Counted from the stretch's first letter, positions 17,495-48,940 are shown. The stretch is 64,000 nucleotides of DNA from Chthonomonadaceae bacterium (GCA_035653075.1 DASRCN010000067.1:13233-77232), one strand, 5' to 3'. Program-made: numbers and translations. Notes: generated by a model not told the origin, from the letters alone.

Positions 17495-17560
17495 GTCGTT
17501 TTAGCCGGGCCATGCATTACCCGCCTGCGGGGCACTACCCGTTGCCCTGCGGGCGGGAAG
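17495..17560. repeat. Dispersed intergenic repeat, family A copy (GTCGTTTTAGCCGGGCCATGCATTACCCGCCT...GCCCTGCGGGCGGGAAG)
   Basis: Near-identical 5' module to the copy at 41424-41492. Related copies lie at 26377-26470 and 48852-48940. Confidence 0.5.
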
Positions 17561-18227
17561 GTCTGGGTACTCGTAGTCCTGTCCCTGGCTACTCCTTTGC
17601 GCCCGCCTGCTTGAGCATCTGGAAACCGACGAGATCGAAATCCTGGCCCTGTCGGTGCTGTTTGCCTGCCCGATAGCAGAGGAATGGAGTCCTGCGAGAG
17701 TGCCACCCATCAGCAAAAGAAGCGAGCCTACGATCAGGCGAAGGTGTTTCATGATAATACTGCCTCCGACTATTGACAGTATACGCCAGCTACGTTACGC
17801 TATCGTTACAACACCGTTACAAGTCCGCCTGCTTTCCCGTCCGGTAGGACGGTGTGTCTTTCCTGCCGGGTCGTTTATCGGCCCGGCATAGATGGGCCAG
17901 GGATAGAAGCCTGGGTCCTCCCCTTCCAATCGCCTAGCCCACCCCTTACCCCATCCAATCGCCGACGCGTTCCCCATTCCCTGCGAATGGAGTGAGCGTA
18001 GCAGGGAAGGCAGGGCCACCAGGCCTGTGGTCAAGTGAGGGGTCAGGTAAAAGCGGGCCCAGCATTAAAACGATGTTAAAAACGGGGAAAATTCCTTCCC
18101 ACAGCGCCTTCTTTTGGAGGTATACTGTTGGGGTTGATGGCGATGGAAACGCCGTCTAAGATAACGGCCTCCGCCGCCAGAGACAGTATCAGCAGTTTCT
18201 CCGATGATGGCTCGCGCAGGAGGCGCC

Positions 18228-20375
18228 ATGCCGACCGGCCAAAAAGACCCGGCGCGCGTAATTCCCAGTACAACCCATATGAACGACAAGGGCGGCTTGA
18301 GCCTGGATGACCCGTTGCAATATCTGAAAGGCGTCGGGCCGCAAGCGGCGACCGTGCTCGGCAAGATCGGCCTGCGCACGGTAGCGGACCTGTTGCGCCA
18401 TATCCCCCGCCGTTGGGAGGATCGGACCAACTTCCGGCGGGTGGCCGACGTGCGCGGCGGCGAGATGGTGACCGTCCGCGGCGTGGTGATCGCCGCATCC
18501 ACCAAGTATCCCAGGCCGCGCCTGCAGATCACCGAAGCGCTCTTAGACGACGGCGGCTGCGCCCTGAAGCTGGTCTGGTTTAACCAGCCCTACATGGAAC
18601 GGACCTTCAAGGGGCTGGCGGCCACGCGCCGCCCGGTCGTCGTCTATGGGCTGGCCCGGCGCGCCGGCTGGGGCGTGGAGATCCAGAACCCGGAGTGGGA
18701 AGAGCTGGGCGAGGACGGCGACACGCTCTCGTCCAACCGCATCGTTCCCGTCTATCCCGCCACGGAGGGCGTGCGGCAGGGGCGGCTGCGGCGCATGGTG
18801 GATGCCGTGCTGCGCGCCTACCTGCCGCTGATCGAGGAGACGCTGCCCCCGGACGTGATCCGGCAGCACCGGCTTGTGGGCGCGCGGGAAGCGGTGCGCA
18901 ACATCCACTTCCCGGACAGCCTGGAGGCGCTGGAAGCGGCCCGGCGAAGGCTGGTCTTCGAGGAGTTTTTTGTCCTGCAGACCTTGCTGGCGATGCGCCG
19001 CAAGGCCCACAGCCGCGAGGCGCAGGGCATCCGATTTCAGGTTTCGCTGGAGCGGCTGCAGGAGGATCTCCAGCAGATCGTGCCGTTCACGCTGACGAAC
19101 GCGCAGCAGCGGGCCATCGCCGAGATCGCCGCCGATCTCTCCAGCGGGCACGCGATGAACCGGCTGCTGCAGGGCGACGTGGGCAGCGGCAAGACGATGG
19201 TGGCGCTGGCGGCCATGCTGATGGCCGTGGAGAACGGCTATCAGGCGGCGATGATGGCCCCGACCGAGATTCTGGCCCAGCAGCACGCCATCGTGCTGCG
19301 CCGCCTGCTGGAGCCGCTGGGCCTGGCGGTCGAGCTGTCGCTGGGCAGCCAGACGGTCAAAGAAAAAGCTGGCGTGCGGGAGCGGCTGCTCGGCGGGCAG
19401 TCCCGGCTGGTCGTCGGCACGCACGCCCTGATTCAGGAGGGCGTCGAGTTCGCCCGGCTGGGTCTCATCATCATCGACGAGCAGCACCGCTTCGGGGTGC
19501 TGCAGCGGCAGGCGCTGCGCAAGAAGGGCGAGCGCCCGCACGTCCTGGTGATGACGGCCACGCCGATCCCGCGAACGCTGACCCTGACGCTCTACGGCGA
19601 CCTGGACGTCTCGCTGCTGGACGAGCTGCCGCCAGGCCGCAAGCCGATCACGACGCACTGGAAGCCGCAGGACAAGCACGCCCAGGTCTATGCCGGGGCG
19701 CAGCGGCTTCTGGAAGAGGGCCGCCAGCTCTACATCGTCTGCCCGCTGGTGGAGGAGAGCGAGAAGCTGCAGGCCAAAAGCGCCACGCAGCTCTGCGAGC
19801 ACATCGCCAACGAGGTCTTCCCGCAGTACCGGGTGGGACTGCTGCACGGCCAGATGCGCTCGGATGAAAAAGAGGCGGCTATGGCCCGCTTCAAGGCGGG
19901 CGACCTGCACGTTCTGGTCGCCACGACGGTCATCGAGGTGGGCATCGACGTGCCCAACGCCTGTGTGATCGTCATCGAGGACGCCGACCGGTTCGGGCTG
20001 GCACAGCTCCATCAGTTGCGCGGGCGCGTGGGACGCGGGGAGTACGCCTCCTACTGCATCCTGGTCGCCGATCCCAAGACCGAGGACGGGCGGGCGCGCC
20101 TGGAGGTGATGACGGCCACCCAGGACGGTTTCAAGATCGCCGAGGAGGACTTGCGGCTGCGCGGTCCCGGCGAGTTCTATGGCACGCGCCAGAGCGGGAT
20201 GCCGGAGCTGATCGTCGCCGACATCGTCCGCGACATGGACATCCTGACGGAGACGCGGGAGACCGCGTTCCGTCTCGTCGAGTCGGACCCGACGCTCTCC
20301 CGATCGGAGCACCAGCCGCTCCGCCGCGCGCTGCAGCGCACGGAGATGGGCGTCGAGCTGATCAGTGTGAGCTAA
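18228..20375 (+). CDS. recG: ATP-dependent DNA helicase RecG
   Basis: Wedge-domain N-terminus (...LQYLKGVGPQAATVLGKIGLRTVADLL...). Helicase motifs I (GDVGSGKT), II (DEQHRFG), VI (QLRGRVGRG). Start is uncertain among Met codons at 18204, 18228 (AGGAGG RBS) and 18279. Confidence 0.9.
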   Translation: MPTGQKDPARVIPSTTHMNDKGGLSLDDPLQYLKGVGPQAATVLGKIGLRTVADLLRHIPRRWEDRTNFRRVADVRGGEMVTVRGVVIAASTKYPRPRLQITEALLDDGGCALKLVWFNQPYMERTFKGLAATRRPVVVYGLARRAGWGVEIQNPEWEELGEDGDTLSSNRIVPVYPATEGVRQGRLRRMVDAVLRAYLPLIEETLPPDVIRQHRLVGAREAVRNIHFPDSLEALEAARRRLVFEEFFVLQTLLAMRRKAHSREAQGIRFQVSLERLQEDLQQIVPFTLTNAQQRAIAEIAADLSSGHAMNRLLQGDVGSGKTMVALAAMLMAVENGYQAAMMAPTEILAQQHAIVLRRLLEPLGLAVELSLGSQTVKEKAGVRERLLGGQSRLVVGTHALIQEGVEFARLGLIIIDEQHRFGVLQRQALRKKGERPHVLVMTATPIPRTLTLTLYGDLDVSLLDELPPGRKPITTHWKPQDKHAQVYAGAQRLLEEGRQLYIVCPLVEESEKLQAKSATQLCEHIANEVFPQYRVGLLHGQMRSDEKEAAMARFKAGDLHVLVATTVIEVGIDVPNACVIVIEDADRFGLAQLHQLRGRVGRGEYASYCILVADPKTEDGRARLEVMTATQDGFKIAEEDLRLRGPGEFYGTRQSGMPELIVADIVRDMDILTETRETAFRLVESDPTLSRSEHQPLRRALQRTEMGVELISVS

Positions 20376-20378
20376 ACG

Positions 20379-20855
20379 ATGCCACGCGCGCTGGTGCCGG
20401 GCAGTTTCGACCCGGTCACAAACGGACACCTCGATATCATCGAGCGGGCGGCGGGAATGTTCGACCGCGTGCTCGTGGCCGTGGCGCGCAACTACTCCAA
20501 AGCGCCGCTCTTCACCATCGAGGAGCGGATGGAGATGCTGGCCGAAGTCTGCGTACCCTACCCCAACGTCGCGGTAGACGCCTTCGAGGGCCTGCTGGTG
20601 GATTACGCCGTCGCGCACGAAGCGACCGTCATCGTGCGCGGGCTGCGGGCCGTCACGGACTTCGAGTACGAGATGCAGATGGCGCTGATGAACCGGCGGC
20701 TCAACAGCGCCGTCGAGACCGTGTTTATGATGCCGGGGGCGGAATACTCCTACCTCAGCTCCAGTATCGTCAAAGAAATCGCCCGCCTCGGTGGGTCTGT
20801 GAAAGGGCTGGTACCAGACCGTGTTGAAGAACGACTACGACAGAAAGTCGGATAA
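20379..20855 (+). CDS. coaD: Phosphopantetheine adenylyltransferase
   Basis: [21 protein letters not shown]... carries the T/HxGH motif and matches the CoaD length. Confidence 0.95.
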
Positions 20856-20874
20856 CACCGAACAAACCGAACTC

Positions 20875-21582
20875 ATGAATCCCGATTCTCCCCCCAAGAA
20901 TACCGATACCGTACCGGTCGCGCCTACCCAGGCCGCCGATCCGCCGCGCTTCGTCGTGCCGCCTCAGGGCAGCGTGGACCTGTTAAAGCTGCTGACCGAG
21001 CTGGAAGAGCTGGTCGAGAAGACGCCGCGCCTGCCGATGGGCACGCTGTTCCGTTTCGACGAGGACCGCTTCCACATGACGCTCATGAAAATTCGGGCCA
21101 ACCTGCCGGAGGACCTGAAGCGCGCCTCGAAACTTGCCCGTGAGTCCGAGCGTATCGTAGAGGAGACGCGGGAGAACGTCGAGCGTGTCACGGAAGGGGC
21201 GCGGAAAGCGGCGCTGACCGAGCTGGAGCGCGGGCGCGCCGAGGCGGCGCGTCTGAAGGAGCAGGCCGTGGCGGAGGCCCAGCGCCTCCATGAGGCCGCC
21301 GTGCAGGAGGGGCAGCGAATCCAGGACGAGGCCCGCGTGGAGGCCGAGCGGATTCTGGAGGCCGCGCATGCGGAGGCGGCCGCGCTGGTGTCCGAAAGCG
21401 GCATCCTCCGGCAGGCCGAGGGCGTGGCCGAAGATATTAAGAAGCGCGCCTGGCAGGAAGCGGAGAAGATGCAGCGCGGCGCGGACGACTACGCGCACGG
21501 CGTGCTTGCCAACCTGGAGATCACCCTCGGCAAGACGCTCGCGCAGGTCCAGCAGGGGCGCGTGCTACTGGAAAAAAGCTGA
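20875..21582 (+). CDS. Coiled-coil hypothetical protein in conserved position between coaD and DUF177/rpmF
   Basis: Highly charged alpha-helical E/A/R-rich sequence. Start set at the internal Met after the coaD stop. No family recognised. Confidence 0.55.
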   Translation: MNPDSPPKNTDTVPVAPTQAADPPRFVVPPQGSVDLLKLLTELEELVEKTPRLPMGTLFRFDEDRFHMTLMKIRANLPEDLKRASKLARESERIVEETRENVERVTEGARKAALTELERGRAEAARLKEQAVAEAQRLHEAAVQEGQRIQDEARVEAERILEAAHAEAAALVSESGILRQAEGVAEDIKKRAWQEAEKMQRGADDYAHGVLANLEITLGKTLAQVQQGRVLLEKS

Positions 21583-21599
21583 GGTCGATTCAAGGTGTC

Positions 21600-22163
21600 A
21601 TGATGCGGCTTGATCTAACCGAGCTTCTGCATGAAGTCGGGAAGCAGGTAGAATACGACATCAACGAGCCTCCCCTCGTGGATGAGGATGTCGAATGTAC
21701 GCAGCCTATCCAGGGCAAGGCGACCTTTACCAATACGGGCGGCCTGCTGCTCATTCGCGGGAATGCCCGGACGGCGGTCGCCCTGCCGTGCAGCCGCTGC
21801 GCGCTCTACTACGAACAGCCTGTCGCGTTCCCGATCGAGGAGCAGTTCGAGATCCATCGGGTGTCGGGACCGCGCGGGCCGCAGGCGATAACGCTTCTGG
21901 AAGAGGACCAGAGCCCGATTGCGGGTAAACTGTTTGAGGGCTACGTGCTCGACCTGACGGAGATGCTTCGCCAGTATATCCTGCTGGCCGAGCCGACGCA
22001 GCCCTTGCCGCCGCTGGATGCCGGCGGGCGCTGCGCGCACTGCCACCGGACTCCGGAAGAGGTCCTGCAGGAAGCTACCGGAGAGACGGAAACGGACGAA
22101 GCGCCGATCAACCCGGCCTTTGCCAAGCTCGGCGAGCTACTGGATAAAAACAAGCCGACCTGA
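21600..22163 (+). CDS. DUF177 (YceD/YlbN family) protein, large-subunit ribosome accumulation factor-like
   Basis: Conserved position directly upstream of rpmF. CxxC...CxxC motifs (LPCSRCALYY; GGRCAHCH) typical of YceD. Confidence 0.85.
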   Translation: MMRLDLTELLHEVGKQVEYDINEPPLVDEDVECTQPIQGKATFTNTGGLLLIRGNARTAVALPCSRCALYYEQPVAFPIEEQFEIHRVSGPRGPQAITLLEEDQSPIAGKLFEGYVLDLTEMLRQYILLAEPTQPLPPLDAGGRCAHCHRTPEEVLQEATGETETDEAPINPAFAKLGELLDKNKPT

Positions 22164-22208
22164 TACAATAGGACGTAATAAGGAAATAGATAGAAAGGAG
22201 GTCATGGC

Positions 22209-22415
22209 ATGCCGCTTCCCAAACGTCGTCATTCCAATCAGCGCACGCGCAAGCGACGCACGCACTATAAACTCGCGCATCACCCCGCGATGGTGCCCAG
22301 CTTCGAGAAGCAGGGCGGATATACCTTAATGCACCGGGTCGATCCGGAGACGGGTCGCTACAAGGGTCGCCAGGTCTTTGACGTGGCGGATGAGACCCAG
22401 CAGGGCCAGGGTTGA
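22209..22415 (+). CDS. rpmF: 50S ribosomal protein L32
   Basis: MPLPKRRHSNQRTRKRRTHYKL... is the canonical bL32 N-terminus. RBS AAAGGAGG lies upstream. Confidence 0.95.
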   Translation: MPLPKRRHSNQRTRKRRTHYKLAHHPAMVPSFEKQGGYTLMHRVDPETGRYKGRQVFDVADETQQGQG

Positions 22416-23509: not shown

Positions 23510-24597
23510 CTTCCACTCCAGGCGCGCTTCCCAACAACTCTCCGCTCCCCTCCACGACGGCAGGCGGCTTCGGCGCCGGTATTCTCGGGCTGGGTCTGTG
23601 CGTGCCCGACCGTGTGGTCACCAACGACGACCTCGCGCGGATGGTGGACACCAGCGATGAGTGGATCACCACCCGCACCGGCATCCGGGAGCGGCGGATC
23701 GCCGGGCCGGAGACGGCTACGTCCGACCTGGCCGTCTCTGCCGCGCAGGAGGCGCTCAAAGATGCCGGGATAGAGGCCGCGCAGCTTGATCTGATCCTCT
23801 GCGCCACGACCTCCGGCGACTATGTCTGGCCGGCGACCGCCTGCGTGGTCCAGCAGCGGATCGGCGCCGTGCGCGCCGCCGCCTTCGATCTGGCCGCCGC
23901 CTGCTCCGGTTTCTGCTATGGCATGGCGGCGGCGGCGGGCTTTATTCAGACCGGGGCCATGCGGCGTATTCTGGTGATCGGCGCGGACATGCTTACCCGG
24001 CAGACCAATTGGGAGGACCGGGGGACCTGCATTCTCTTTGGAGACGGCGCGGGAGCGGCCGTCCTCGGCCCCTGCGCGCCGGAGGAGGGGATCCTGGCCT
24101 CCGTGCTGGGCGCGGACGGCAGCGGCGTGGATATGCTGCTCATTGCCGCCGGGGGCACGCGCCGGCCAATGACGCGGGAAGCCCTGGAAGAGAAAAAGAA
24201 TACCATTTTCATGCGCGGGCGCGAGGTCTACCGGTTCGCCGTCGAAGTCGTGCCGGAAGCGATCGAGGAGGCGTTGCGGCGCGCCTGTCTGCGCCCGAGC
24301 GACGTGAATCTTTTGGTGATGCATCAGGCGAATATCCGTATTCTCACGGCAGTCGCGGAGCGGATGGATATCCCGATGGAGAAGGTGTTCGTCAATATCG
24401 AAAAGTACGGCAACACGTCCGCCGCCTCTATCCCGATCGCCCTGGCGGAAGCCGCCGCGCAGGGGCGGCTGCACAAAGGCGATGTCGTCGTCACCGCCGG
24501 CTTCGGCGCGGGTCTGACCTGGGCCACCAATGTCTTGCGCTGGAACCGTGAAGAAAATAGACCTCACCCCTGTCCAATCGCCATCGGTGCGGGGTAA
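23506..24597 (+). CDS. fabH: 3-oxoacyl-ACP synthase III (FabH), with short N- and C-terminal extensions
   Basis: ...GILGLGLCVPDRVVTNDDL... Active-site Cys context AAACSGFCYG. ...HQANIRIL... and ...YGNTSAASIP... motifs. Confidence 0.95.
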   Translation: MTSTPGALPNNSPLPSTTAGGFGAGILGLGLCVPDRVVTNDDLARMVDTSDEWITTRTGIRERRIAGPETATSDLAVSAAQEALKDAGIEAAQLDLILCATTSGDYVWPATACVVQQRIGAVRAAAFDLAAACSGFCYGMAAAAGFIQTGAMRRILVIGADMLTRQTNWEDRGTCILFGDGAGAAVLGPCAPEEGILASVLGADGSGVDMLLIAAGGTRRPMTREALEEKKNTIFMRGREVYRFAVEVVPEAIEEALRRACLRPSDVNLLVMHQANIRILTAVAERMDIPMEKVFVNIEKYGNTSAASIPIALAEAAAQGRLHKGDVVVTAGFGAGLTWATNVLRWNREENRPHPCPIAIGAG

Positions 24598-24609
24598 CGG
24601 CCCCGCTAA

Positions 24610-24643
24610 TGTTCCCCCTCTCCTTATGAAGGAGAGGGGAACA
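24610..24643. repeat. C-rich/G-rich palindromic repeat, family B copy (TGTTCCCCCTCTCC-TTATGAA-GGAGAGGGGAACA) between fabH and fabD
   Basis: Near-perfect hairpin seen directly inside the fab operon intergenic gap. Confidence 0.5.
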
Positions 24644-24684
24644 GAGCCGAGGAAGCTGTTTAGTCATTCAGGCCGGGTTTAAGT

Positions 24685-25632: not shown

Positions 25633-26375
25633 TGAAATTACAGGATAAAGTCGCGGTGGTGACGGGCGCCGGGCGCGGGATCGGCCGGGCGATCGCGCTG
25701 AAGCTGGCGGAAGAGGGCGCGAAGGTCGTCGTCAACTACAGCCGCAGCGCCGAAGCCGCCGAGCAGGTGGTCGCGCAAATCCGCGCGCAAGACAGAGAGG
25801 CGATCGCCGTTCAGGCCGACGTGGCGGATGCGGCGCAGGTAGAAGCCCTCTTTACGGCGGCGCGAGAGCGCTTCGAGCGCATCGACCTGCTGGTCAACAA
25901 CGCCGGCGTCACCCGCGACAAATTGCTGCTGCGCATGAGCGAAGAGGACTGGGATGCCGTTCTGGATACCAACCTCAAGGGCGCCTTCCTGTGCGCTCGC
26001 GCGGTCGCGCCGCTCTTTCTAAAGCAGAAGGGTGGGGGCATCGTCAACGTCGGCTCGGTGATCGGTACGGTCGGCGGCGCCGGCCAGGCCAACTACAGCG
26101 CCTCCAAGGCCGGCCTGGTGGGCCTGACGAAGTCGCTGGCGAAGGAATTGGGCTCGCGGAATGTGCGGGTCAATGCGGTCGCGCCGGGATTTATCGAGAC
26201 CGAGATGACGGAGGTCCTTAAGCCCGACTATCGGGAGGCGATCCTGCGCCAGATTCCGCTGGGGCGCTTCGGGACGGTCGAGGATGTGGCTCGTGTCGTC
26301 GCTTTTCTGTGTTCCGAGGATGCCGCCTATATCCAGGGACAGGTGATCTCTATCAACGGCGGGCTGTTTATGTGA
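25632..26375 (+). CDS. fabG: 3-oxoacyl-ACP reductase
   Basis: SDR motifs TGAGRGIGRAIA (TGxxxGIG) and YSASKAG (YxxxK). Confidence 0.95.
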   Translation: MKLQDKVAVVTGAGRGIGRAIALKLAEEGAKVVVNYSRSAEAAEQVVAQIRAQDREAIAVQADVADAAQVEALFTAARERFERIDLLVNNAGVTRDKLLLRMSEEDWDAVLDTNLKGAFLCARAVAPLFLKQKGGGIVNVGSVIGTVGGAGQANYSASKAGLVGLTKSLAKELGSRNVRVNAVAPGFIETEMTEVLKPDYREAILRQIPLGRFGTVEDVARVVAFLCSEDAAYIQGQVISINGGLFM

Positions 26376-26376
26376 G

Positions 26377-26470
26377 GCGCCGGGCCATGAAATACCCGTC
26401 TGGGGGGCCTTCGGCCTGCGTAGCGAGCGGCGCTTGCGCCTGCCTGGCGAAGAACCGTCCTGCCGGACGG
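26377..26470. repeat. Dispersed intergenic repeat, family A copy, between fabG and acpP
   Basis: GCGCCGGGCCATGAAATACCCGTCTGGGGGGCCTTCGGCC... shares the GCCGGGC-ATG-AT(T)ACCC-GGCCTTCGGCC core with the copies at 17495, 41424 and 48852. Confidence 0.45.
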
Positions 26471-26528
26471 AAAAACCGGCAGCGGAAATCTTTCCTATCA
26501 TGACCATCGAGAAGGAGAAAGGGAGCGC

Positions 26529-26765
26529 ATGAACACTTTCGAGCGTGTAAAGAAGGTACTGGTCGAGCAGTTGGACGTGAGCGAGGACGAGGTGACGCCG
26601 CAGGCGAACATCGTCGATGATCTGCATGCCGACTCGCTGGACGTGGTCGAGATCATCATGGGGTTGGAAGAGGAATTCGACATCGAGATCCCGGATGAGG
26701 ATGCCGAGAAGATCACCACCGTCCAGCAGATCATCGACTACGTCGAGGATAAGGCCAAGGGCTAA
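26529..26765 (+). CDS. acpP: Acyl carrier protein
   Basis: ...[25 protein letters not shown]... carries the DSLD phosphopantetheine attachment motif. Confidence 0.95.
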
Positions 26766-26831
26766 GGGAAGGAGAACGAGGCCGCTCTTCCGGCCGCGCG
26801 AGGTCCGGCAGGGGGCGATGAGGAGCGTGTT

Positions 26832-38200: not shown

Positions 38201-38229
38201 TCCAAGCTGACAGCAGGTACACGCTATGG

Positions 38230-39387
38230 TCAGGCGAGGGCGTCGGCCAGGTCGGTCTCTTCCCACGGGAAAGCGGGGTTGCCGAAGTGGCCGTTGCGGG
38301 CGGTCTGGACGTACTGGATGCGCTCCGGGCGCAGCAGGCACAACCGCTCGATCATAGCGCGGGGTCGCAGATCGACCGCCTGGCGGACGCGCCGCACGAT
38401 CTCGGCGTCGGAGGCGCGGCCCGTGCCGAAAGTGTCCACCAGAACGCTGACCGGCTCGGCAACCCCGATGGCATAGGCAAGCTGGATCTCGACGCGATCG
38501 GCCAGGCCCGCCGCCACGATGTTCTTGGCGATGTAGCGGCCCGTGTAGGAAGCCGAGCGGTCCACTTTCGAGGGGTCCTTGCCGGAGAAAGCGCCGCCGC
38601 CGTGCCGCGCCGCGCCGCCGTAGGTGTCTACGATGATCTTGCGGCCGGTCACGCCGGTATCCGCCTGCGGGCCGCCGATGACGAAGCGGCCCGTCGGATT
38701 GATATAGTATTTGATATTGCCCTTGTTGACCCGATCGTACTTCTGCAGCACCGGCTTGACGACGTACTCCTGGACGTTCGCCTGCACGCTCTCCTGCGTA
38801 TGCGAGGGATCGTGTTGCGTGGAGACCACTAACGTTTCGATGTGATCGGGCCGCCCATCCGGGCCGTAGGCGATGGTCACCTGGGCTTTGCCGTCGGGCC
38901 GGAAGCCGAGCTCGGGATGGGCGCGGCGCGTTGCCGCCAACTGCCGGGTCAGGTCGTGGGCGATGGTGATGGGCAGGGGCATCAGGTGCTCGGTCTCATT
39001 GACGGCATAGCCGAACATGAGGCCCTGGTCGCCCGCGCCCTGCTCGTTGGGGTCCTCGCGGTCGACGCCCTGCGCGATGTCGGGCGACTGCTGCTGGATG
39101 GCGAGCATGACGCCGCAGGTATAGCCGTCGAAGCCGTAGTCCGTATGCGTATAGCCCACGCCCACGATGGTCTGGCGGACCACGTCGGCGATCTCCACGT
39201 AGGCTTCGGTGGTCAACTCGCCGCCGACCACGCACAGCCCGCGCGTCAGGAAGGTCTCCAGGGCCACGCGCGAGCGGGAATCTTTCTTGAGCAGCTCATC
39301 CAGAACGGCGTCGCTGATCTGGTCGGCGAGCTTGTCCGGGTGTCCTTCCGTAACGCTCTCCGAGGTAAACAGGGTGAAATCCGACAT
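38230..39387 (-). CDS. metK: S-adenosylmethionine synthetase
   Basis: [30 protein letters not shown]... is the canonical MetK N-terminus. ...[12 protein letters not shown]... and ...[17 protein letters not shown]... motifs. Start set at MSDF (the ORF track includes a 47-codon upstream extension). Confidence 0.95.
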
Positions 39388-39841
39388 ATCCAAATCGATC
39401 CTTTCTTCGCGGCCCGACCTCGCTCTGCGTTGAGTGGAGGCAGCTTCGGGCTGGAAAGTTCCTAATGGGCGCGCTGCCGGAAGAGCATGGCCCTCCTGCA
39501 GAACGGCGTCGTTCCTGATGCGCAAGCTTCGGTCTGCGTTCTGCCGTCGCCGGCAAATGCGGCGACAAACAAAAACCCCTTCTGCGTTGCAGAAGAGGTC
39601 GTAACGGCGGGTTAAAGGACGGTCTTCACGTAAAGGGACCGTGTCCTTGCCTTACGCTCTCTTATCTTGCAGTTGGCAGAATGTGCGACTGCCCGGATTT
39701 AGCACCTGCCCGGCCTCCTGGAAAAAGGCGGGTGGTTGTTGTGGTGTCGTCGGGCCGGTTCCCTCGACCACTCTCGATAAGAAGCTTCGCTATACGGTTG
39801 TCAGCGAAAGAGTATCATATTCCCTGTAGGAATGTCAATAT

Positions 39842-40350: not shown

Positions 40351-40501
40351 CCGCTCCCTCTTGTTATACGATCTCTGGCAAACTATATAAGCACTGGTGA
40401 ATAGGAAATATCACGTTCAAACCAGCTCTTATTACGCAGTCTACGGACGAACAGATAATAAGATGCTGCTTAGCCTCATGTCAAGAAAGTCGGGTCCTTC
40501 C

Positions 40502-41416: not shown

Positions 41417-41423
41417 AGACCGT

Positions 41424-41492
41424 GTCGTTTTAGCCGGGCAATGAATTACCCGTCTCTAGGGCCTTCGGCCAACCGCCCTGCGGGCGGAAAAG
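41424..41492. repeat. Dispersed intergenic repeat, family A copy (GTCGTTTTAGCCGGGCAATGAATTACCCGTCT..GGGCCTTCGGCC..CCGCCCTGCGGGCGGAAAAG)
   Basis: Contains a GGCC-UUCG-GCC tetraloop hairpin and a CCGCCC-TGC-GGGCGG hairpin. Lies in the LysR/sdhC divergent region. Confidence 0.5.
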
Positions 41493-41668
41493 CCGTTATC
41501 TCCTCTTTTGGTTTATTATTAGCCTTGCTTCTAATTCCTATCTTAACATTTCATTTCTCATTTCTGCAAGCTTGTGCCATACTATACGCATGGCGGTGTA
41601 GTGGCAACCAACATCGCAACCTTTTTGTACAATTCCCCTCAAGTGACGAGAGGATAGGGAGTGAGGGA

Positions 41669-42493: not shown

Positions 42494-42558
42494 TGCCGGG
42501 GTTAAAACCCCGGTCTGAAATACAAAGCCCGCCTAAGCGGGCTATCCGCTTCCAACTA

Positions 42559-42610
42559 TGTTCCCCCTTCCTACGAGCGTAGCGAGCCAACCAGGGAGGG
42601 GAACAGGGGG
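42559..42610. repeat. C-rich/G-rich palindromic repeat, family B copy (TGTTCCCCCTTCC...GGAGGGGAACAGGGGG) between sdhC and sdhA
   Basis: Seen directly. Confidence 0.4.
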
Positions 42611-42620
42611 TAAGGGGTAA

Positions 42621-44435
42621 TTGGATTTCGATACCTTTGAATTCGATGTGCTGATTATCGGCGCGGGCGGCGCGGGCCTGCGGGCCGTTATCGCCGCGCG
42701 GGAGGCCGGCTGCACCGTCGGCGTGGTGTGCAAATCGCTTTTAGGCAAGGCGCACACGGTCATGGCCGAGGGCGGCATCGCGGCGGCGCTGGGCAACATG
42801 GTCGCTCCTGACGGCACCCGCGAGCCCGACGACTGGAAGGTCCACTTCGTCGATACGATGAAGGGCGGCGCCTTCCTGAACGACTGGCGCACCGTGGAAA
42901 TCTTCGCCAAGGAAGCGCCGGAGCGCGTCCTGGAACTGGAGCAGTACGGCGCCGTTTTCGACCGCACGCCGGAGGGCTTGATCGCCCAGCGCCCGTTCGG
43001 CGGCCATAAATACCGCCGCCTGAACCACGTCGGCGACCGCACCGGGCTAGAGCTGATCCGCACCGTGCAGGATAAGGCGGTCGGAGTCGGCATGGACGTC
43101 CTCATGGAGGTCACGCTCACGCGGCTCCTCAAAGAGGGCGACCGGGTCGTCGGCGCGTTCGGCTACTACCGCGAGACGGGCCAGTTCGTGCTCATCAAGG
43201 CCAAAGCGGCTGTGATGGCGACCGGCGGCTGGGGACGCATGTACAAGTACACCTCCAACTCCTGGGAAGGAACGGGCGACGGCCTGCAGATGGCGTATGA
43301 GGCGGGCGCGGACCTGATCGACATGGAGATGGTCCAGTTCCATCCGACCGGCATGATCTGGCCGCCCGGAATGCGCGGCATCCTGGTCACTGAAGGCGTG
43401 CGCGGCGAAGGCGGCATCCTGCGCAACAACAAGGGCGAGCGGTTCATGTTCAAGCCGGAGTACATGCCGGCCCTCTATGCCGGCCAGTTCGCCGAGTCGG
43501 AGGAGGAGGCCGCCCGCTGGCTGGACGATAAAAAGAACAATCGCCGCCCGCCGGAGCTGCTTCCCCGCGACGTGGTCTCCCGCAGCATCTATAAAGAGGT
43601 CGAGGCCGGCCGGGGCAGCGAGCATGGCGGCGTCTACCTGGACGTCTCCCATCGCGGCGAGGACTACATCAAGCGCAAGCTACCCAGCATGTACGAGCAG
43701 TTCCATGCCCTCGGCGAGATCGACATCACCAAGCAGCCGATGGAGGTCTATCCGACCATCCACTACACGATGGGCGGCGTCTGGGTCGAGCCGGAGACCT
43801 GCGCGACCAGCGTGCCCGGCCTGTTTGCCGCGGGCGAGGTGGCGGCCAGCCTGCACGGCGCGAACCGGCTGGGCGGCAACTCGCTCTCGGACATCCTGGT
43901 CTTCGGCAAGCGCGCTGGCGAAGGCGCCGCTGCCTATGCCAAAACGGTCTCGCACGGCCAGATCGATCCCAAACAGATCGAGGCCGAGGCGGATGTCCTG
44001 CTCGCTCCGCTAGGAACGAAGGGCGGCGAAAGCCCGTATGCGATCCATCAGGAGTTGCAGGAGACGATGCAGAAGAACGCCATGATCGCGCGTACGGAGC
44101 CGGGGCTTCTGGAGGCGCTGGAGAAGATTCAGGAGCTGCAGCAACGGGCGCAGCACATCAGCGTGCCCGGCGACCGCCTCTTCAATCCCGGCTGGCACGC
44201 CGCCCGCGACGTGCGGTTCATGCTCGTCACGTCCGAGATCATCGTCCGCTGCGCCCTGGAGCGCAAGGAGAGCCGGGGCGCGCAGTGGCGCACGGACTTT
44301 CCCGAGCGGGACGACGCCTATTGGGGCAAGCAGAACCTGATCGCCAAAAAGGCGGGAGATCGCATCGAGATCGCGCCCCGACCGCTCAAGGAGATGCCGC
44401 CGGAGTTGAAAGCGCTCTTCGAGGAGATCAAATAA
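42621..44435 (+). CDS. sdhA: Succinate dehydrogenase/fumarate reductase flavoprotein subunit
   Basis: FAD-binding N-terminus FDVLIIGAGGAGLRA. ...RSHTVMAEGGIAAA... and catalytic ...HYTMGGV... motifs. Confidence 0.95.
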   Translation: MDFDTFEFDVLIIGAGGAGLRAVIAAREAGCTVGVVCKSLLGKAHTVMAEGGIAAALGNMVAPDGTREPDDWKVHFVDTMKGGAFLNDWRTVEIFAKEAPERVLELEQYGAVFDRTPEGLIAQRPFGGHKYRRLNHVGDRTGLELIRTVQDKAVGVGMDVLMEVTLTRLLKEGDRVVGAFGYYRETGQFVLIKAKAAVMATGGWGRMYKYTSNSWEGTGDGLQMAYEAGADLIDMEMVQFHPTGMIWPPGMRGILVTEGVRGEGGILRNNKGERFMFKPEYMPALYAGQFAESEEEAARWLDDKKNNRRPPELLPRDVVSRSIYKEVEAGRGSEHGGVYLDVSHRGEDYIKRKLPSMYEQFHALGEIDITKQPMEVYPTIHYTMGGVWVEPETCATSVPGLFAAGEVAASLHGANRLGGNSLSDILVFGKRAGEGAAAYAKTVSHGQIDPKQIEAEADVLLAPLGTKGGESPYAIHQELQETMQKNAMIARTEPGLLEALEKIQELQQRAQHISVPGDRLFNPGWHAARDVRFMLVTSEIIVRCALERKESRGAQWRTDFPERDDAYWGKQNLIAKKAGDRIEIAPRPLKEMPPELKALFEEIK

Positions 44436-44437
44436 AT

Positions 44438-45241
44438 ATGGATAAGATAACTCTGCGCGTCTTTCGCGGCGATTCGGAAGGCGGCAAGATGATCGCCTAT
44501 GAAGTGCCGACGTTCCCCGGCATGGTCGTGCTGGATGCGGTACATTACATACAATCCCATCTGGACAGCACGCTGGCCTGCCGCTGGAACTGCAAAGCCG
44601 CCAAATGCGGCTCCTGCAGCGCCGAGATCGACGGCAAGCCGCGCCTGATGTGCAAGTCCCGCGTGGACGAGTACCCTTCCGGCGACATCAGCCTGGGACC
44701 GATGCGCGCCTTCCCGCTCATCAAGGACCTGGTGACGGACGTGTCGTGGAACTACCGCACGGCGGCCATGATCCCGCCGCTGGTCCCCAAACCGGAGGTG
44801 GCGGGCAAGCCGTTCGTGCTGCAGCAGATGGACGTGGACCGCGTGCAGGAGTTCCGCAAGTGCATCGAGTGTTTCCTCTGCCAGAACGTCTGTCACGTTC
44901 TGCGGGACCACCAGCGCATGGACGGCTTCTTCGGCCCGCGCCAGATGTGCCGTCTCGGCGCTCTGGAGATGCACCCGATGGACGACCTCAACCGCCGCGA
45001 GCAGTTGCGCCACGAGGCGGGCGTGGGATTCTGCAACATTACCAAATGCTGCACGGAGGTTTGCCCGGAGCACATTCACATCACGGATAACGCGATCATC
45101 CCCCTCAAAGAGCGCGTGGTGGACGACTACTTCGATCCCATCAGCGGCCTGCTGACCAAGATCGGGGTCCTCAAGCGGGAAAAGAAGCGGCCCATGAGCA
45201 GCGTCAAAAACAACCTGACCCGCTTCCACCGCCCCAAATAG
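44438..45241 (+). CDS. sdhB: Succinate dehydrogenase/fumarate reductase iron-sulfur subunit
   Basis: 2Fe-2S Cys cluster (CRWNCKAAKCGSCSAEI), 4Fe-4S (CIECFLCQNVC) and 3Fe-4S (CTEVCPEHI) motifs. Start at ATG 44438 (MDKITLRVF...). Confidence 0.95.
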   Translation: MDKITLRVFRGDSEGGKMIAYEVPTFPGMVVLDAVHYIQSHLDSTLACRWNCKAAKCGSCSAEIDGKPRLMCKSRVDEYPSGDISLGPMRAFPLIKDLVTDVSWNYRTAAMIPPLVPKPEVAGKPFVLQQMDVDRVQEFRKCIECFLCQNVCHVLRDHQRMDGFFGPRQMCRLGALEMHPMDDLNRREQLRHEAGVGFCNITKCCTEVCPEHIHITDNAIIPLKERVVDDYFDPISGLLTKIGVLKREKKRPMSSVKNNLTRFHRPK

Positions 45242-45557
45242 GGCACGATCCGAAAATGTTACTTTTTGATACCCTAGGATATGGAAAACCCCAGGATAAA
45301 GCAAAGAGCGCCGGATCGGCCTGGATCCGGCGCGTAGGACAGCGGGTAGGCTTGTCTTAGCTTCTATTATGGTCCTTCACACGCAGGGCATTCCCCGTAA
45401 ACCTACCAGGTTGATCGCCGGGCGGCTCAGGCAAAATAAATTTTTCGGGATCCTCCGCCAAAATACCGTCTTCTGGCACGCTTTATGCAGAGACCGGTAA
45501 TGATACTGTCCAGACCCAGGGATGGAACGCCGCCTTTTCAGGACGAAAGGAGATCTC

Positions 45558-45779
45558 ATGCGCCCGATCGACGATCGCTTGCCTGCCACGAGACAGGCGG
45601 AAGAGGAGCATGCCACGCAGCAAAACCTCGACTCAACGCATTCCAGGCTGGAGGAGCAGCGCTACCTGGCCGATGTCATGGAGGCGCTGGAGGCGGACCG
45701 GCTTTCGGAAGAGGAGCGAACGCATCTTAAAAGAGTCTTGATACGCTGCTTCGGCGAGGCCGTTCGCGGGGGGGTGTGA
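45558..45779 (+). CDS. Small hypothetical protein (73 aa)
   Basis: AAGGAGA RBS 6 nt upstream of ATG 45558. No family recognised. GC codon bias acceptable. Confidence 0.3.
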   Translation: MRPIDDRLPATRQAEEEHATQQNLDSTHSRLEEQRYLADVMEALEADRLSEEERTHLKRVLIRCFGEAVRGGV

Positions 45780-45813
45780 CGAATTTCACAGTCAAGATGT
45801 GACGAAATTCTCT
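45775..45813 (+). promoter_or_regulatory. Tandem CRP/FNR-type sites (TGTGACGAATTTCACA; TGTGACGAAATTCTCT) upstream of a TAGAAT -10 element
   Basis: First site is a perfect TGTGA-N6-TCACA palindrome. Site centres are about 65 and 42 bp upstream of the inferred start near 45848. Confidence 0.35.
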
Positions 45814-45847
45814 TCCCAACGTCTGCATTTTCTGTTAGAATGAACAT

Positions 45848-45940
45848 GCGAGTAGAGAATGCGAGTAAGAGTGAGACAAATTGATTGCAGAGTAAGCGAG
45901 GGAGGCGATTTCGCCTCCCTCTCCTTCTTTCTATCGCTTT
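45848..45940 (+). ncRNA. Candidate small RNA (about 90 nt) between a TAGAAT -10 element and a rho-independent terminator
   Basis: -10 box at 45836-45841. Terminator GAGGGAGGCG-ATTT-CGCCTCCCTC then TCCTTCTTTCTATCGCTTTT at 45898-45940. Body contains three GCGAGTA(A/G)GAG-like direct repeats. Alternatively this is simply the 3'UTR and terminator of the 45558 ORF. Confidence 0.25.
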
Positions 45941-46114
45941 TGGCACGCTTCTTGCAGGAAGACAGGTTGCAGTACTAAAAAAGCCGTGTCTTGCCGGGGA
46001 GAGCATTCCTGCGTCCTTGCTGCCTCTTGACCGACTGCAAGCCTACCAACCGCAGGAGGTAAAGCCATGCAAAGACGAAGGACGCCTGCCTGACAGACAC
46101 GGCTTTTGCACTGC

Positions 46115-47194
46115 TTACTGGCCGGACAGGCAGCCTAACTGGCCGCTGCTGTTCGGGTAGCCCGTGCCGGCATTGTAGGCCGCGTTAGACCACTCGCCCT
46201 GGATCTTCCACTGCGTGCCGTTGGAGAAGGTGACCAGCGGCGCCCCGAACGTCCAGGCGCATTTGTCTCCATTCTCGTTGTTGCCGGCATCGTACCAGCC
46301 GCCATTGCGCGGATCCGTGCGCGCCTCGGAGAGCTCGTGGCCGCTCACGTTCGCCAGCGCCGCCAGCCCCTGCGAGTGCAGGCCGGAGGTGTCTCCGGGA
46401 TCGCAGCCGGGATCGCCGTCCAGGTTGAAGAAGAAGGCGAACTGAACGGGAACGCCGCTGCAGGAGCCATAGCTGTGCCAGGCGCAGTAGCCCGCGCTGG
46501 CGGGCCGCGGCTTGTCAATGTAGACGGCATAGTAGCCGTTCGCGACCAGGTCGGAGGCGGGGATGACCTTGCAGACCTCGGACTGGATGGTCGAGACGGA
46601 AGGCGCGCGTTTCGGCGCCGCCGAGCCGTCGATGAAGTGTCCGTAGTACGAGGTGGTGGCCGTCACCTGGCCGTTCGTGCCGGTATACTCATCGGAGGCC
46701 TTTGCGTAGTTGCTGCCATTGAAGCCGTTATACCAGGAGTCCATACCGCTGATCTTGTCGCCTGAATAGCTGGGCCAGCTCGATCCCCAGAAGATGGCTG
46801 CGTTGGCTGCCGTCACCATGATCGCGCCGTTATGCCAGGTCATGTCGCCGTAGACGACCGCAGGCTGAATACCGCCGCCGCCTTTAACGCGAAGGAAGTT
46901 GGCGCGAGCCAGGAAATGACTGGGGCAGGGGAGAATGGAGTTGCGGTCCACATAGGCCATCAGCTTTTCGCCGGTCTGGGTGGCGATGCCATTGTGGTCG
47001 GCGGCATACAAGAAATAGGCTTCCGAGAACTGCCGCTCGTTGGAAAGGCAGGAGACTTTGCGATAGTCGCGAGCCTGAGCGATGACGGGGAACAGGGCGG
47101 CGGCCAGGATGGCGACGACCGCCAGGGCGATGAGGAGCTCGATCAACGTGAAGGCGTCTTGCCGATGACTTCTCCGAACGGTTGCTGCGTGCAT
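46115..47194 (-). CDS. Prepilin-type N-terminal cleavage/methylation domain protein (DUF1559 family), second copy
   Basis: [42 protein letters not shown]...SCLSNERQ... Start set at the MHAA Met. Confidence 0.8.
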   Translation of the reverse strand: MHAATVRRSHRQDAFTLIELLIALAVVAILAAALFPVIAQARDYRKVSCLSNERQFSEAYFLYAADHNGIATQTGEKLMAYVDRNSILPCPSHFLARANFLRVKGGGGIQPAVVYGDMTWHNGAIMVTAANAAIFWGSSWPSYSGDKISGMDSWYNGFNGSNYAKASDEYTGTNGQVTATTSYYGHFIDGSAAPKRAPSVSTIQSEVCKVIPASDLVANGYYAVYIDKPRPASAGYCAWHSYGSCSGVPVQFAFFFNLDGDPGCDPGDTSGLHSQGLAALANVSGHELSEARTDPRNGGWYDAGNNENGDKCAWTFGAPLVTFSNGTQWKIQGEWSNAAYNAGTGYPNSSGQLGCLSGQ

Positions 47195-47508
47195 GTAGGG
47201 TTCCTTTCTAGATCCACACGTGGGGAACTTGGTCAGTATTACCCAGTTACGAACAGACCGAAGATGGTCGGCACTACAGTTGCATAGAAGGTGACAGAGG
47301 GGAAGTGGCTCGATAGGCATCTCTCCTGAGCAGCACAGGCTGCCGCAAAGTGGCGATCATACGCGCATAATAACAGATTGCCGTCGCATTGTCAATAAGA
47401 ATTTTCGCTAGCTTTTATGTTCGATGATGCAAATGGGAGCAAACAACCGGAAAGCGCCTGCCGGAAAGCCGGCAGGCGCTCTTGTTGAGGGTTTAGAACG
47501 GGCCGGGC

Positions 47509-48045
47509 TTACGGGCGCATGGCCAGCAGCCGGGCTTTCTCGATGGCAAGTCGCAGGGTATCGATGTCCCAGAAGTCGTCGTGGCGGACGCCGTTGACGA
47601 AGAAGGTCGGGGTGCTGCGCACCCCGGCGGCCACGCCGCTGTGGAGGTCTTCGAGGACCCGCTCGACGAAGGTATGGTTTTCCAGGTCGGCGGCGAACGG
47701 GCGGGTATCCAGGCCCATCGCGGTGGCGTAAGCCAGCAGGTTCGCTTCGTCCAGAACATCCTGGTTCTGCAGCAGATGGCGATGCATCTCCCAGAACTTG
47801 CCCTGCTTGCCCGCGGCTTCGGCGGCTTCGGCGGCGCGCTGGGAGGGGGAGTGGGCGGTCTCGCGCGGAAAATGGCGATAGATCAGCCGGATCGGGTCGC
47901 CGGCCTCGCGGATTTCGTCCACGATGACCATGGCCTGCCGGCAGTGCGGGCAGTCGTAGCTGCCGTACATTACCAGCGTGACCGGCGCGTCGGCCGGACC
48001 CAGCGTATGATCGCTTTCGCGAACGGGAGTTACGAGCGTGCTCAT
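47509..48045 (-). CDS. DsbA-like thioredoxin-fold protein
   Basis: CPHC active site (...MYGSYDCPHCRQA...) and DsbA-like helical insertion. Start set at MSTLVTPV. Confidence 0.8.
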   Translation of the reverse strand: MSTLVTPVRESDHTLGPADAPVTLVMYGSYDCPHCRQAMVIVDEIREAGDPIRLIYRHFPRETAHSPSQRAAEAAEAAGKQGKFWEMHRHLLQNQDVLDEANLLAYATAMGLDTRPFAADLENHTFVERVLEDLHSGVAAGVRSTPTFFVNGVRHDDFWDIDTLRLAIEKARLLAMRP

Positions 48046-48214
48046 GAGGTTCCTCCTTGCGGACACGGCAAGGGAATGCGAATCTCGATGCCGTTCTTTC
48101 CGTATCATGGATTACGAATGGGCTGGACAGATAGCTGCAGGCAAAACTCACCTCGGTAAGACCGGCCCTACTTTGACCGATCCCTCCGTTCCCTCCGTCG
48201 CCAGGAATTTTCGC

Positions 48215-48259
48215 TTGACATTTCTCTGAGCCTCTGCTATAATCATTATCAATAATGAT
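48215..48259 (+). promoter_or_regulatory. Sigma70 consensus promoter TTGACA-17-TATAAT with overlapping perfect inverted repeat ATCATTAT-CA-ATAATGAT (candidate operator for the ArsR-like autoregulator)
   Basis: Hexamers at 48215-48220 and 48238-48243 with a 17-bp spacer. 8-bp inverted repeat arms at 48242-48249 and 48252-48259. GGAGGGAG RBS precedes the ATG at 48298. Confidence 0.5.
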
Positions 48260-48297
48260 AATACAGGGGCAAGCAAGCCGGAACGCGAGGAGGGAGC

Positions 48298-48843
48298 ATG
48301 GCTACTTCCAGGGCCGACCTGATCACCCATCCTATGCGGGCGCGCATCATCGCCGCGCTCATGGGCAGGCAGCTTACCACCCAGCAGATGGCGGAGCTGC
48401 TGCCGGACATTCCCCTGCCTTCTCTCTACCGGCACGTACGGCTGCTGGTGGAGGCGGGCGTTCTGAAGGCGGTCGAGGAGGTCCGCGTGCATGGCGCGCT
48501 GATGAAAGTCTATGCTCTGCAGGAGGGCGGCGGGCGACTGCAACCCCAGGATGTCGCCGACGCTGACCGCGCCGACCGCCTGCGCCACTTTACGACGTTT
48601 CTCAATACTCTGCTGGAGAGCTATCGTCTGAAGCTGGAGCAGAACGATCCCGAACCCGGCGCGGATTTCCTGAACTGTCTGGTCGAGCCGCTCTATCTGC
48701 GTCCGGAAGAGACAAAGGGCTTCGTCGAGGCGCTGCAGGCGTTTCTGGAGCCCTGGCGCGCGCACCCTTCGGCTCCGGATCGCCGCCGGCTGCTCTTCGC
48801 CCGGATTCTCTTTCAGGACAAGCCCGATCCGCCGCTTACTTGA
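48298..48843 (+). CDS. ArsR/winged-helix family transcriptional regulator
   Basis: N-terminal wHTH ...ITHPMRARIIAALMGRQLTTQQMAELLPDIPLPSLYRHVRLLVEAGVLKAVEE.... Followed by a hydrolase gene in the same orientation. Confidence 0.65.
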   Translation: MATSRADLITHPMRARIIAALMGRQLTTQQMAELLPDIPLPSLYRHVRLLVEAGVLKAVEEVRVHGALMKVYALQEGGGRLQPQDVADADRADRLRHFTTFLNTLLESYRLKLEQNDPEPGADFLNCLVEPLYLRPEETKGFVEALQAFLEPWRAHPSAPDRRRLLFARILFQDKPDPPLT

Positions 48844-48851
48844 GCCCGTGT

Positions 48852-48940
48852 GGGCCGGGCACGGAATTACCCACCTGGGGGTCCTTCGGCCCGCGGGGCG
48901 TCTACTCGAACCTTCGGGCAATCCTACGGGCGGGAAAGTC
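48852..48940. repeat. Dispersed intergenic repeat, family A copy (GGGCCGGGCACGGAATTACCCACCTGGGGGTCCTTCGGCCC...CGAACCTTCGGGCAATCCTACGGGCGGGAAAGTC)
   Basis: Shares core blocks with the copies at 17495, 26377 and 41424. Contains two CCTTCGG tetraloop modules. Confidence 0.45.

Follow-up and report, generated by a model that had tools for sequence, protein, structure and literature searches.

A Palindromic Repeat with Six Copies

The stretch analyzed here comprises 64,000 nucleotides of a Chthonomonadaceae bacterium (GCA_035653075.1, DASRCN010000067.1:13233-77232) and is referred to in its entirety as the window. Dispersed among its genes, which include fabG and acpP, a LysR gene, and recG, are six copies of a repeat, family A, whose complete unit consists of three consecutive hairpins, H1, H2, and H3 (Table 1). 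The copies probably are non-autonomous mobile DNA resembling the repetitive extragenic palindromes (REPs) and the REP doublets (REPINs) of other bacteria, since relatives of this bacterium have a small gene for a Y1 transposase between two copies of the element.

An earlier note on this DNA had listed four copies, and these were found again in three ways. Exact matching on both strands with the core GCCGGGCNNNGNANTACCC, which has 15 specified bases, gave four matches, all on the plus strand (at 17504, 26379, 41433, and 48854); in dinucleotide-preserving shuffles, 0.79 matches were expected even with two mismatches tolerated. An independent mechanical repeat finder grouped the same four copies as its family D2, and a covariance model gave six matches at E<1e-3, i.e., these four plus two more, both diverged and located on the minus strand (17833-17891 and 14942-14991). 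Thus, the count of four is correct for the plus strand, and the total for the window is six. The 16-nt 5' module GTCGTTTTAGCCGGGC is shared without a mismatch by 17495-17510 and 41424-41439, as had been noticed, and Pfam matches agree with the gene neighborhoods that had been proposed (fabG-acpP, the divergent LysR/sdhC region, and an ArsR-like gene). An in-frame ATG had been ascribed to every copy; it is present in three of the four and absent from copy 4, which has ACGG instead and where the open reading frame (ORF) starts at GTG. Spurious ORFs (MNYPSLGPSA..., MKYPSGGPSA...) are indeed seeded by the element.

Copy 3 represents the canonical unit and begins at a distance of 8 nt from the divergent LysR gene, if the latter is taken to start with its longest ORF. 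The segment 17520-17557 of copy 1 can alternatively fold into a single long imperfect hairpin. Copies 1 and 5 are arranged tail to tail, 272 nt apart, and copy 6 adjoins a copy of a second repeat family, which is recognized by ACCTCACCCC and described in the last section. Between copies 1 and 5 lies an ORF of 83 codons on the minus strand, the product of which has a signal-peptide-like N-terminus (MKHLRLIVGSLLLLMGGTLAG...) and no Pfam match. Its last ~20 codons are antisense to copy 1, and it may or may not be a gene.

Table 1. Copies of family A and other features of the window (w/o, without).
Feature	Coordinates	Strand	Context	Model match	Parts
Copy 1	17495..17560	+	DoxX-like gene before, recG after	39.5 bits, E 1.4e-9	5' extension GTCGTTTTA 17495-17503; H1 17504-17525 (GCCGGGCCATGCATTACCCGCC); w/o H2; H3 core GCCC-TGC-GGGC 17544-17554, then GGGAAGG
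Copy 2	26375..26475	+	fabG-acpP gap (FabG / AcpP)	45.7 bits (5' part), 11.7 bits (H3 part)	H1 26379-26400; H2 GGCCTTCGGCC 26406-26416; 38-nt GC-rich insertion 26417-26454; H3 CCGTCC-TGCC-GGACGG 26455-26470, then AAAAA tail
Copy 3	41424..41491	+	LysR / membrane protein, then SdhA	84.2 bits, E 3e-22	5' extension GTCGTTTTA 41424-41432; H1 41433-41454; H2 41460-41470; H3 CCGCCC-TGC-GGGCGG 41473-41487, then AAAA tail
Copy 4	48850..48940	+	Gap between HTH_20 (ArsR-like) and beta-lactamase-family genes	24.5-25.0 bits	H1 48854-48875, degenerate (CCCACC 3' arm, ACGG in place of ATG); H2 GTCCTTCGGCC 48881-48891; 30-nt insertion 48892-48921; weak H3 and GGGAAA 48922-48937
Copy 5 (new)	17833..17891	-		19.6 bits, E 6e-4	B-type subfamily; H1 GCCGGGC-CGATAAACG-ACCCGGC 17865-17887, perfect stem; w/o H2; H3 CCGTCC-TACC-GGACGG 17837-17852, then GAAAG
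Copy 6 (new, partial)	14942..14991	-	Convergent gap	25.8 bits, E 1e-5	Unrelated small hairpin replaces H1; H2 AGCC-TTC-GGCT 14963-14973; H3 GTGTCC-TGC-GGACGG 14946-14960
83-aa ORF	17501-17752	-	Between copies 1 and 5
Second repeat family	14883-14945	-	Adjoins copy 6
Second repeat family	24561-24639	+
S-adenosylmethionine synthetase gene	38230-39525	-
SAM-I riboswitch	39659-39783	-	Upstream of S-adenosylmethionine synthetase gene	Rfam RF00162, 66.8 bits
Three 61-nt segments	52943-53345	+	Inside ORF 52874-53725

Three Covarying Hairpins

The covariance model was built from six clean copies, and it recovered the four plus-strand copies of the window whether speed filters were used or not. The unit is ~63-72 nt long, with a T-rich 5' edge, (T)TTA, and an A-rich 3' edge, AAAA(GC). 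Upstream, the information content of the flanks is at background beyond ~5 nt, and downstream beyond ~6 nt. The consensus of the 5' edge is T-T-T-A before the G of the stem, and a G at position -3 is found in only about 10% of the copies. In H1, GCCGGG-C-NN-TGAA-N'N'-A-CCCGKC, the GCCGGG/CCCG stem is invariant and is followed by an internal C·A mismatch, an extension of 2 bp that covaries, and the loop TGAA. H1 is connected to H2 by CTGG plus one or two bases, and H2 is connected to H3 by AA. H2 is variable, GGNCC-UNC-GGNCC (the GGCC-UUC-GGCC type), and can be lengthened (GGCGGC-UAC-GCCGCC), swapped for additional hairpins that occupy 30-60 nt (copies 2 and 4 of the window), or missing altogether. 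H3 consists of CCGYCC, a loop of 3-4 nt (e.g., UGC), and GGRCGG. A B-type subfamily, GCCGGGCCGATAAACGACCCGGC, lacks H2; copy 5 belongs to it, and the 21-mer CCGGGCCGATAAACGACCCGG of this copy has 12 further exact occurrences in nine related loci.

The earlier description of the hairpins needs correction at several points. H2 had been read as a hairpin with a UUCG tetraloop, but it has a 4-bp stem and a 3-nt loop (G-C, G-C, C-G, and C-G around UUC), not C(UUCG)G, and the pair that covaries is C5-G9 (CG 66, GC 15, UA 3). Nor is the hairpin GGCCTTCGGCC common to all copies, as it is missing from copy 1. The hairpin CCGCCC-TGC-GGGCGG is present in copy 3 but not in copy 4, which has a degenerate hairpin (TCC-TAC-GGG) in the last position.

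Covariation is strong in each of the three hairpins. When 113 distinct copies were aligned with the model, standard pairs made up 92% of the pair cells vs. 77.8% after shuffling, and double-sided changes number 228 vs. 59.7; when the partners are slid, pairing falls to 30-54%. A second alignment, made independently of the covariance model by ungapped MAFFT of the 53 copies of exactly 63 nt, gave 93.8% pairing vs. 81.6% shuffled and 113 vs. 36 double changes, with pairing of ≤51% in the slid controls. In the inner two pairs of H1, the combinations AU, CG, UA, and GC are all seen, and H2 and H3 each show swaps from G-C to U-A and from C-G to G-C. The second pair of H1 is C·U in most copies, i.e., not a pair. 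Chance similarity, which the absence of covariation would have suggested, is thus not borne out. Among the mismatches, G·U (18) is no more common than A·C (21), which fits the neutral decay of DNA palindromes and not selection on one transcribed strand.

For the four plus-strand copies of the window, RNAalifold proposed a long-range pairing of the 3' arm of H1 (CCCGYC) with the 3' arm of H3. This was rejected, because copies with CCCGGC or GACCGG arms cannot form it and because the local hairpins hold across all subtypes.

In solo copies, the 5' half of H1 is often directly repeated 10-16 nt upstream of H1, as GCCGGGCnnnTTTA-GCCGGGC... (e.g., in the related loci L089, L074, and L126, at 2886-2900 of L150, where the upstream repeat reads GTCCCGCCGTGATTA-GTCCCGCCGTGAACGG, and at 17491-17503 of the window). 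In other copies, the unit is preceded by TATA and, before that, by an additional complete H1 hairpin. The repeated half could reflect a relation between guide and cleavage site as in IS608, or it could be the trace of a nested insertion.

Occurrence in Other Genomes

That further copies would be found elsewhere had been the other expectation of the earlier note, and many exist, in genomes of Armatimonadota and in metagenomes. About 190 non-redundant copies, from Chthonomonadaceae, Abditibacteriaceae, and soil metagenome contigs, were available for analysis; the loci (given L numbers here) had been selected for the presence of the element. The same DNA had in some cases been assembled more than once, and such duplicates were removed by sequence. 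A scan with one genome per species yielded 24 loci. The whole three-hairpin unit is present in 12 of them, all in metagenome-assembled genomes (MAGs) of Chthonomonadaceae, unclassified Armatimonadota, and Abditibacteriaceae. The other 12, in alphaproteobacterial and other coding regions, have neither H2 nor H3 and were set aside as chance matches. The metagenome scan found at least 119 stretches, the majority of which belong to a small number of soil series, and among the matches listed for the metagenome loci the covariance model identified 123 + 60 copies. No match was found in the viral contigs of IMG/VR or the plasmids of PLSDB. The FabG protein encoded in the window is itself recorded as one of a Chthonomonadaceae MAG.

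The occurrence is uneven among relatives. A 20.7-kb syntenic stretch of Chthonomonas calidirosea has no copy, and comparable stretches of three other relatives have one or two copies each according to the covariance model; in one of these, L145, a further B-type copy was found by pattern search. The density in the window, six copies per 64 kb or ~1 per 10 kb, implies hundreds of gene-less copies. Chthonomonadaceae and Abditibacteriaceae are separated at the class level in GTDB and at the phylum level in the NCBI taxonomy. The sequence of H1 is nearly invariant across the copies from both families, with two element-bearing contigs being assigned to Abditibacteriaceae by the binning of their depositors. 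In the Abditibacteriaceae MAG, ~30 nt (...GAGTTCGTGCATGATTTTTATG) are shared ahead of three copies (L006, 2200-2232 and 3066-3098; L009, 4303-4335). On the opposite strand, a paralogous gene (ATGCACGAACTCAAACC...) starts with this segment, and the element in these loci travels with, or keeps a fixed distance from, the duplicated gene start.

Genomic Neighborhood and Site Occupancy

The element is an intergenic one. According to a simple codon-score gene caller of our own, which makes these counts approximate, 129 of the 135 classifiable non-redundant copies (96%) are located between genes, with 25 in divergent, 13 in convergent, and 91 in co-directional gaps. Solo copies in co-directional gaps are about equally often in sense (26) and antisense (29) orientation. 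Many copies form doublets. Among 41 adjacent pairs, 33 are tail to tail, with the H3 ends facing each other and H1 outside, one is head to head, and seven are in tandem. The spacers mostly measure 3-90 nt, and the partners usually carry two different H2 subtypes, as judged by a rough classification with regular expressions.

Occupancy of orthologous sites varies. In the fabG-acpP gap, the window has an A-type copy and its closest relative (89% FabG identity) a B-type copy, and no copy is present in this gap in relatives with 84, 79, and 70% FabG identity, including C. calidirosea. The yceD-rpmF gap contains a doublet in L147 and measures 45 nt in the window, and the fabH-fabD gap contains an extra copy in the closest relative, L145.

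A Y1 Transposase Bracketed by the Element

Two doublets stand out by spacers of ~460 nt. In the first, L101 (= L033), the spacer contains an ORF, 3409-3843(-), for a protein of 144 aa that matches Pfam Y1_Tnp (PF01797) over its full length (E 2.5e-27), and the spacer of the second, L133, encodes a homolog with 56% identity to this protein. From a homolog search, four further contexts were retrieved, L149, L150, L151, and L152, in each of which an inverted copy of the element is located immediately on each side of the gene, with H3 toward the gene. Thus, the gene is bracketed by inverted copies at six of the six loci examined. The left and right copies are nearly identical for a given gene and different between genes. 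In L150 and L152, the stem of H1 is rewritten (CCCGCCG-TGAA-CGGCAGG), with retention of the loop, the linkers, H2, and H3.

The proteins, of 144-150 aa, consist of the Y1 domain only, and the HUH motif (HVH), Tyr116 at the catalytic position, and Gln120 are invariant. On the contigs of L150 and L152, of 3.96 and 3.84 Mb, respectively, the protein is encoded at one place each, as found by a look-up of identical proteins, which diverged paralogs would escape, in these two genomes. The two genes are 70% identical and have the same neighbors, which are themselves 72, 58, and 64% identical. The shared position next to such diverged neighbors is more in keeping with a vertically inherited gene than with a transposed one. 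Clusters of the Y1 protein are found on one or two contigs each. An earlier search with an approximate E. coli RayT sequence and a strict motif expression had found no transposase.

A more distant Y1 gene, ORF 4631-5038 of L141, encodes a protein 43% identical in alignment to that of L101. It is bracketed by a different inverted repeat (4560-4640 and 5040-5110) with two hairpins, GTCCGC-GCAG-GCGGAC and GCGGCT-TCA-GCCGCC, which suggests that several Y1/repeat pairs coexist in these bacteria.

Relation to Known Repeat Systems

A dispersed palindromic repeat of variable occupancy, the presence of inverted doublets, and a single-copy, syntenic Y1 gene flanked by the repeat are the hallmark of the REPtron (PMC2817692, PMC3116915, PMC5581495, PMC6006769). 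The REP sequences, bacterial interspersed mosaic elements (BIMEs), and REPINs of E. coli and Pseudomonas, with their REP-associated tyrosine transposases (RAYTs), likewise comprise high-copy extragenic palindromes that occur solo and as inverted doublets (PMC2817692, PMC3116915, PMC5581495, PMC6006769). The likeness extends to a Y1/HUH gene between inverted copies of the dispersed repeat, which in REP-RAYT systems is single-copy and vertically inherited and, as judged from two genomes, may be so here, and to several subtypes per genome, with mixed-subtype doublets resembling the Y/Z2 pairs of E. coli. However, a classical REP is one stem-loop of 20-40 nt, whereas the present unit of ~63-72 nt has three hairpins and a middle arm that tolerates insertions. 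In addition, the doublets are tail to tail, unlike those of REP-RAYT systems, and the transposase remains under the NCBIfam cutoff for RAYTs and has no sequence match to the E. coli RayT structures. The surveys of REPs and RAYTs that were consulted do not mention the Armatimonadota.

The TIRYTs are Y1 transposases between long terminal inverted repeats, and these repeats also form moderately abundant dispersed families (Di Nocera et al. 2013, PMC3733652; subclass 2.1 of Quentin et al. 2018, PMC6006769). They share with the present system a Y1 gene between long (~60 nt or more), non-REP inverted repeats that are scattered in the genome as well. Their repeats have the consensus GGGG[AT][CG]A[CG], and most of their proteins carry an extra C-terminal helix-turn-helix domain (PMC6006769). 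In contrast, the proteins described here have the Y1 domain only, and the repeat is a very abundant set of hairpins without the TIRYT consensus.

With the insertion sequences (ISs) of the IS200/IS605 family, the system has in common a Y1_Tnp protein that passes the IS200 equivalog model and hairpin ends that are presumably read as single-stranded DNA. IS200/IS605 elements have no terminal inverted repeats; their subterminal hairpins differ between the left and right ends and are oriented alike. Here, the ends are inverted and nearly identical, the gene is apparently single-copy and syntenic, and the gene-less copies by far outnumber it, as implied by their density. Finally, pneumococcal BOX, enterobacterial ERIC, and neisserial Correia/dRS3 repeats are similar in having modular units, optional middle modules, and abutting repeat families, but they have no sequence in common with family A and no associated Y1 transposase, dRS3 being a partial exception.

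Origin of the Repeats

The copies in the window are best explained as non-autonomous, REP/REPIN-like miniature mobile DNA of a REPtron-like system of Chthonomonadaceae and relatives (Armatimonadota). We put the probability of this explanation at roughly 0.78. Observed directly were the membership of the copies in one family, their structure and distribution, the geometry of the doublets, the polymorphism of the sites, and the association with a transposase. Since a small, apparently single-copy transposase gene is bracketed by the element in related bacteria, the element is to be seen as a parasite or passenger of the REP/REPIN type and not as a regulatory RNA. Of the two options offered in the earlier note, that of an element similar to REPs or miniature inverted-repeat transposable elements (MITEs) is therefore strongly supported, and that of a small structured RNA is unsupported.

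The Y1 transposase as the mover of the copies, and its enzymology, we infer by analogy with TnpA of IS200/IS605 and TnpA-REP of E. coli. A Y1 dimer would recognize the folded hairpins in single-stranded DNA, e.g., in the lagging-strand template, which Y1 systems usually favor, would cut beside them, and would copy or move units or doublets to other intergenic sites, and the copies thus spread would subsequently decay neutrally. The copies in the window would be passengers, and any effects on neighboring genes, such as those of a stable hairpin cluster in the fabG-acpP transcript, would be secondary.

Several observations weigh against this explanation. Mobility is presumed, and an all-against-all search with the flanks of the retrieved loci gave no clean pair of an empty and a filled site. 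Hence, no target duplication or exact element ends could be defined. One candidate pair was rejected as a repeat-to-repeat alignment of B-type doublets, and the rest were identical duplicate contigs. The gene-context counts are, as mentioned above, approximate. No transposase gene or remnant is present in the entire 64 kb of the window, including the 272-nt spacer between copies 1 and 5, so the link to the genome of the window is by family only. Members of the REP superfamily have an unpaired GTAG (or CGTC) tetranucleotide at the end of a single stem-loop (PMC3733652). The present unit has a (T)TTA edge and three stem-loops, with CGTC only within paired arms. As to the transposase, it passes the NCBIfam model transpos_IS200 (66-79 bits, cutoff 55), stays below the cutoff of 80 of the RAYT model REP_Tyr_transpos (NF047646) with 34.9 and 24.5 bits, and has no match to the E. 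coli RayT structures in a sequence search of the PDB at E≤1.

These family scores are also what favors a derivation of the elements from an ordinary, autonomous IS of the IS200/IS605 type, whose ends they would form, with the dispersed copies as MITE derivatives (palindrome-associated transposable elements). The nearest solved structures, IS200-like transposases of Sulfolobus and TnpA of IS608, point in the same direction. However, near-identical inverted flanks are unlike the ends of such elements, the identical protein is encoded at one place per contig of megabase size, the gene is syntenic between genomes with neighbors of 58-72% identity, and its protein clusters are limited to one or two contigs each. 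We therefore consider this origin improbable. In a narrower form of the preferred REPtron-like explanation, a REPIN-RAYT-type partnership may have been domesticated independently, with a single, vertically inherited Y1 of the IS200 clade, and not a canonical RAYT, co-evolving with a three-hairpin cargo, H1 of which has remained nearly unchanged from Chthonomonadaceae to Abditibacteriaceae. This proposal is tentative, and we would sooner doubt it than rely on it.

The repeats could alternatively be kept for a function in the host, such as binding of nucleoid or other proteins or stabilization or termination at mRNA 3' ends, roles that have been suggested for REPs and BIMEs of E. coli, with an incidental transposase association. 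The near-invariance of H1 exceeds what neutral decay would lead one to expect, and the strictly intergenic location is consistent with such a function as well, but recognition by a transposase explains the conservation of H1 equally well. Furthermore, occupancy of orthologous sites is variable, and convergent gaps are not enriched (13 vs. 25 divergent). The terminator variant was rejected, because A-runs and not T-runs come after the hairpins, and a transcript would have no U-tract there. As the primary explanation, host function thus appears very unlikely; as a secondary role, it is compatible with the REP-like explanation, and nothing observed requires it.

Least probable of all, to the point of being nearly dismissible, is a structured RNA family of cis-regulatory leaders or small RNAs with hairpins selected at the RNA level, to which the compensatory changes, the conserved single-stranded TGAA loop and linkers, and the orientation of the four originally reported copies, all co-oriented with the downstream gene, could be attributed, but which is contradicted by the lack of an orientation bias among solo copies, by G·U pairs being no more common than A·C, by copies in every gap type, convergent gaps included, and by the fabG-acpP gap of relatives lacking a conserved element. 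Rfam 15 has no matching family either: at the gathering threshold, the window gave only the SAM riboswitch elsewhere, and a search with two of the copies at E≤10 returned only meaningless matches of <18 bits. Moreover, an RNA family would leave the inverted doublets and the flanked transposase unexplained.

Implications

A REP/REPIN-RAYT-like system is of a known type, and our literature search found no published description of this one; its unusual features are the three-hairpin unit and the IS200-clade transposase. With it, the Armatimonadota join the lineages that have a REP-plus-Y1-transposase system, which bears on how often Y1 transposases are domesticated and on the DNA shapes that such enzymes recognize. 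In annotation, the element seeds spurious ORFs, inflates intergenic regions in Chthonomonadaceae genomes, and could be mistaken for riboswitch-like leaders, and its recognition as a REP-type repeat avoids mistakes of the first and last kind. At ~1 copy per 10 kb, it may serve as a marker for strain typing and contig binning in uncultured soil and thermal bacteria. If the domesticated partnership is real, the idea of an ancient intragenomic replicator, so far mainly developed in Proteobacteria, would reach a deep-branching, poorly studied phylum, and a structurally richer substrate would be available for studying how Y1 enzymes read hairpins.

Other Repeats and Features of the Window

The second dispersed intergenic repeat family has two copies in the window (Table 1) and 44 distinct copies in related loci. 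It is composed of ACCTCACCCC(C), an optional inner module (TGTCCAATCGCCATCGGTGCGGGGTAACGG...), and the hairpin CCCCTCTCCTT-CGTA-AGGAGAGGGG. The first part is sometimes present in tandem with a period of 14 nt (e.g., in L082). The family very often adjoins the 3' end of family A (GGACGG followed directly by ACCTCACCCC), and in some loci it is followed by another module composed of the 3' arm of H2 plus H3, resulting in BIME-like mosaics.

Two further features are unrelated to these repeats. A SAM-I riboswitch precedes the S-adenosylmethionine synthetase gene (Table 1). The three 61-nt segments within ORF 52874-53725 are 74% identical to the reference copy and spaced by 171 nt, and they probably represent a protein repeat of 57 residues.

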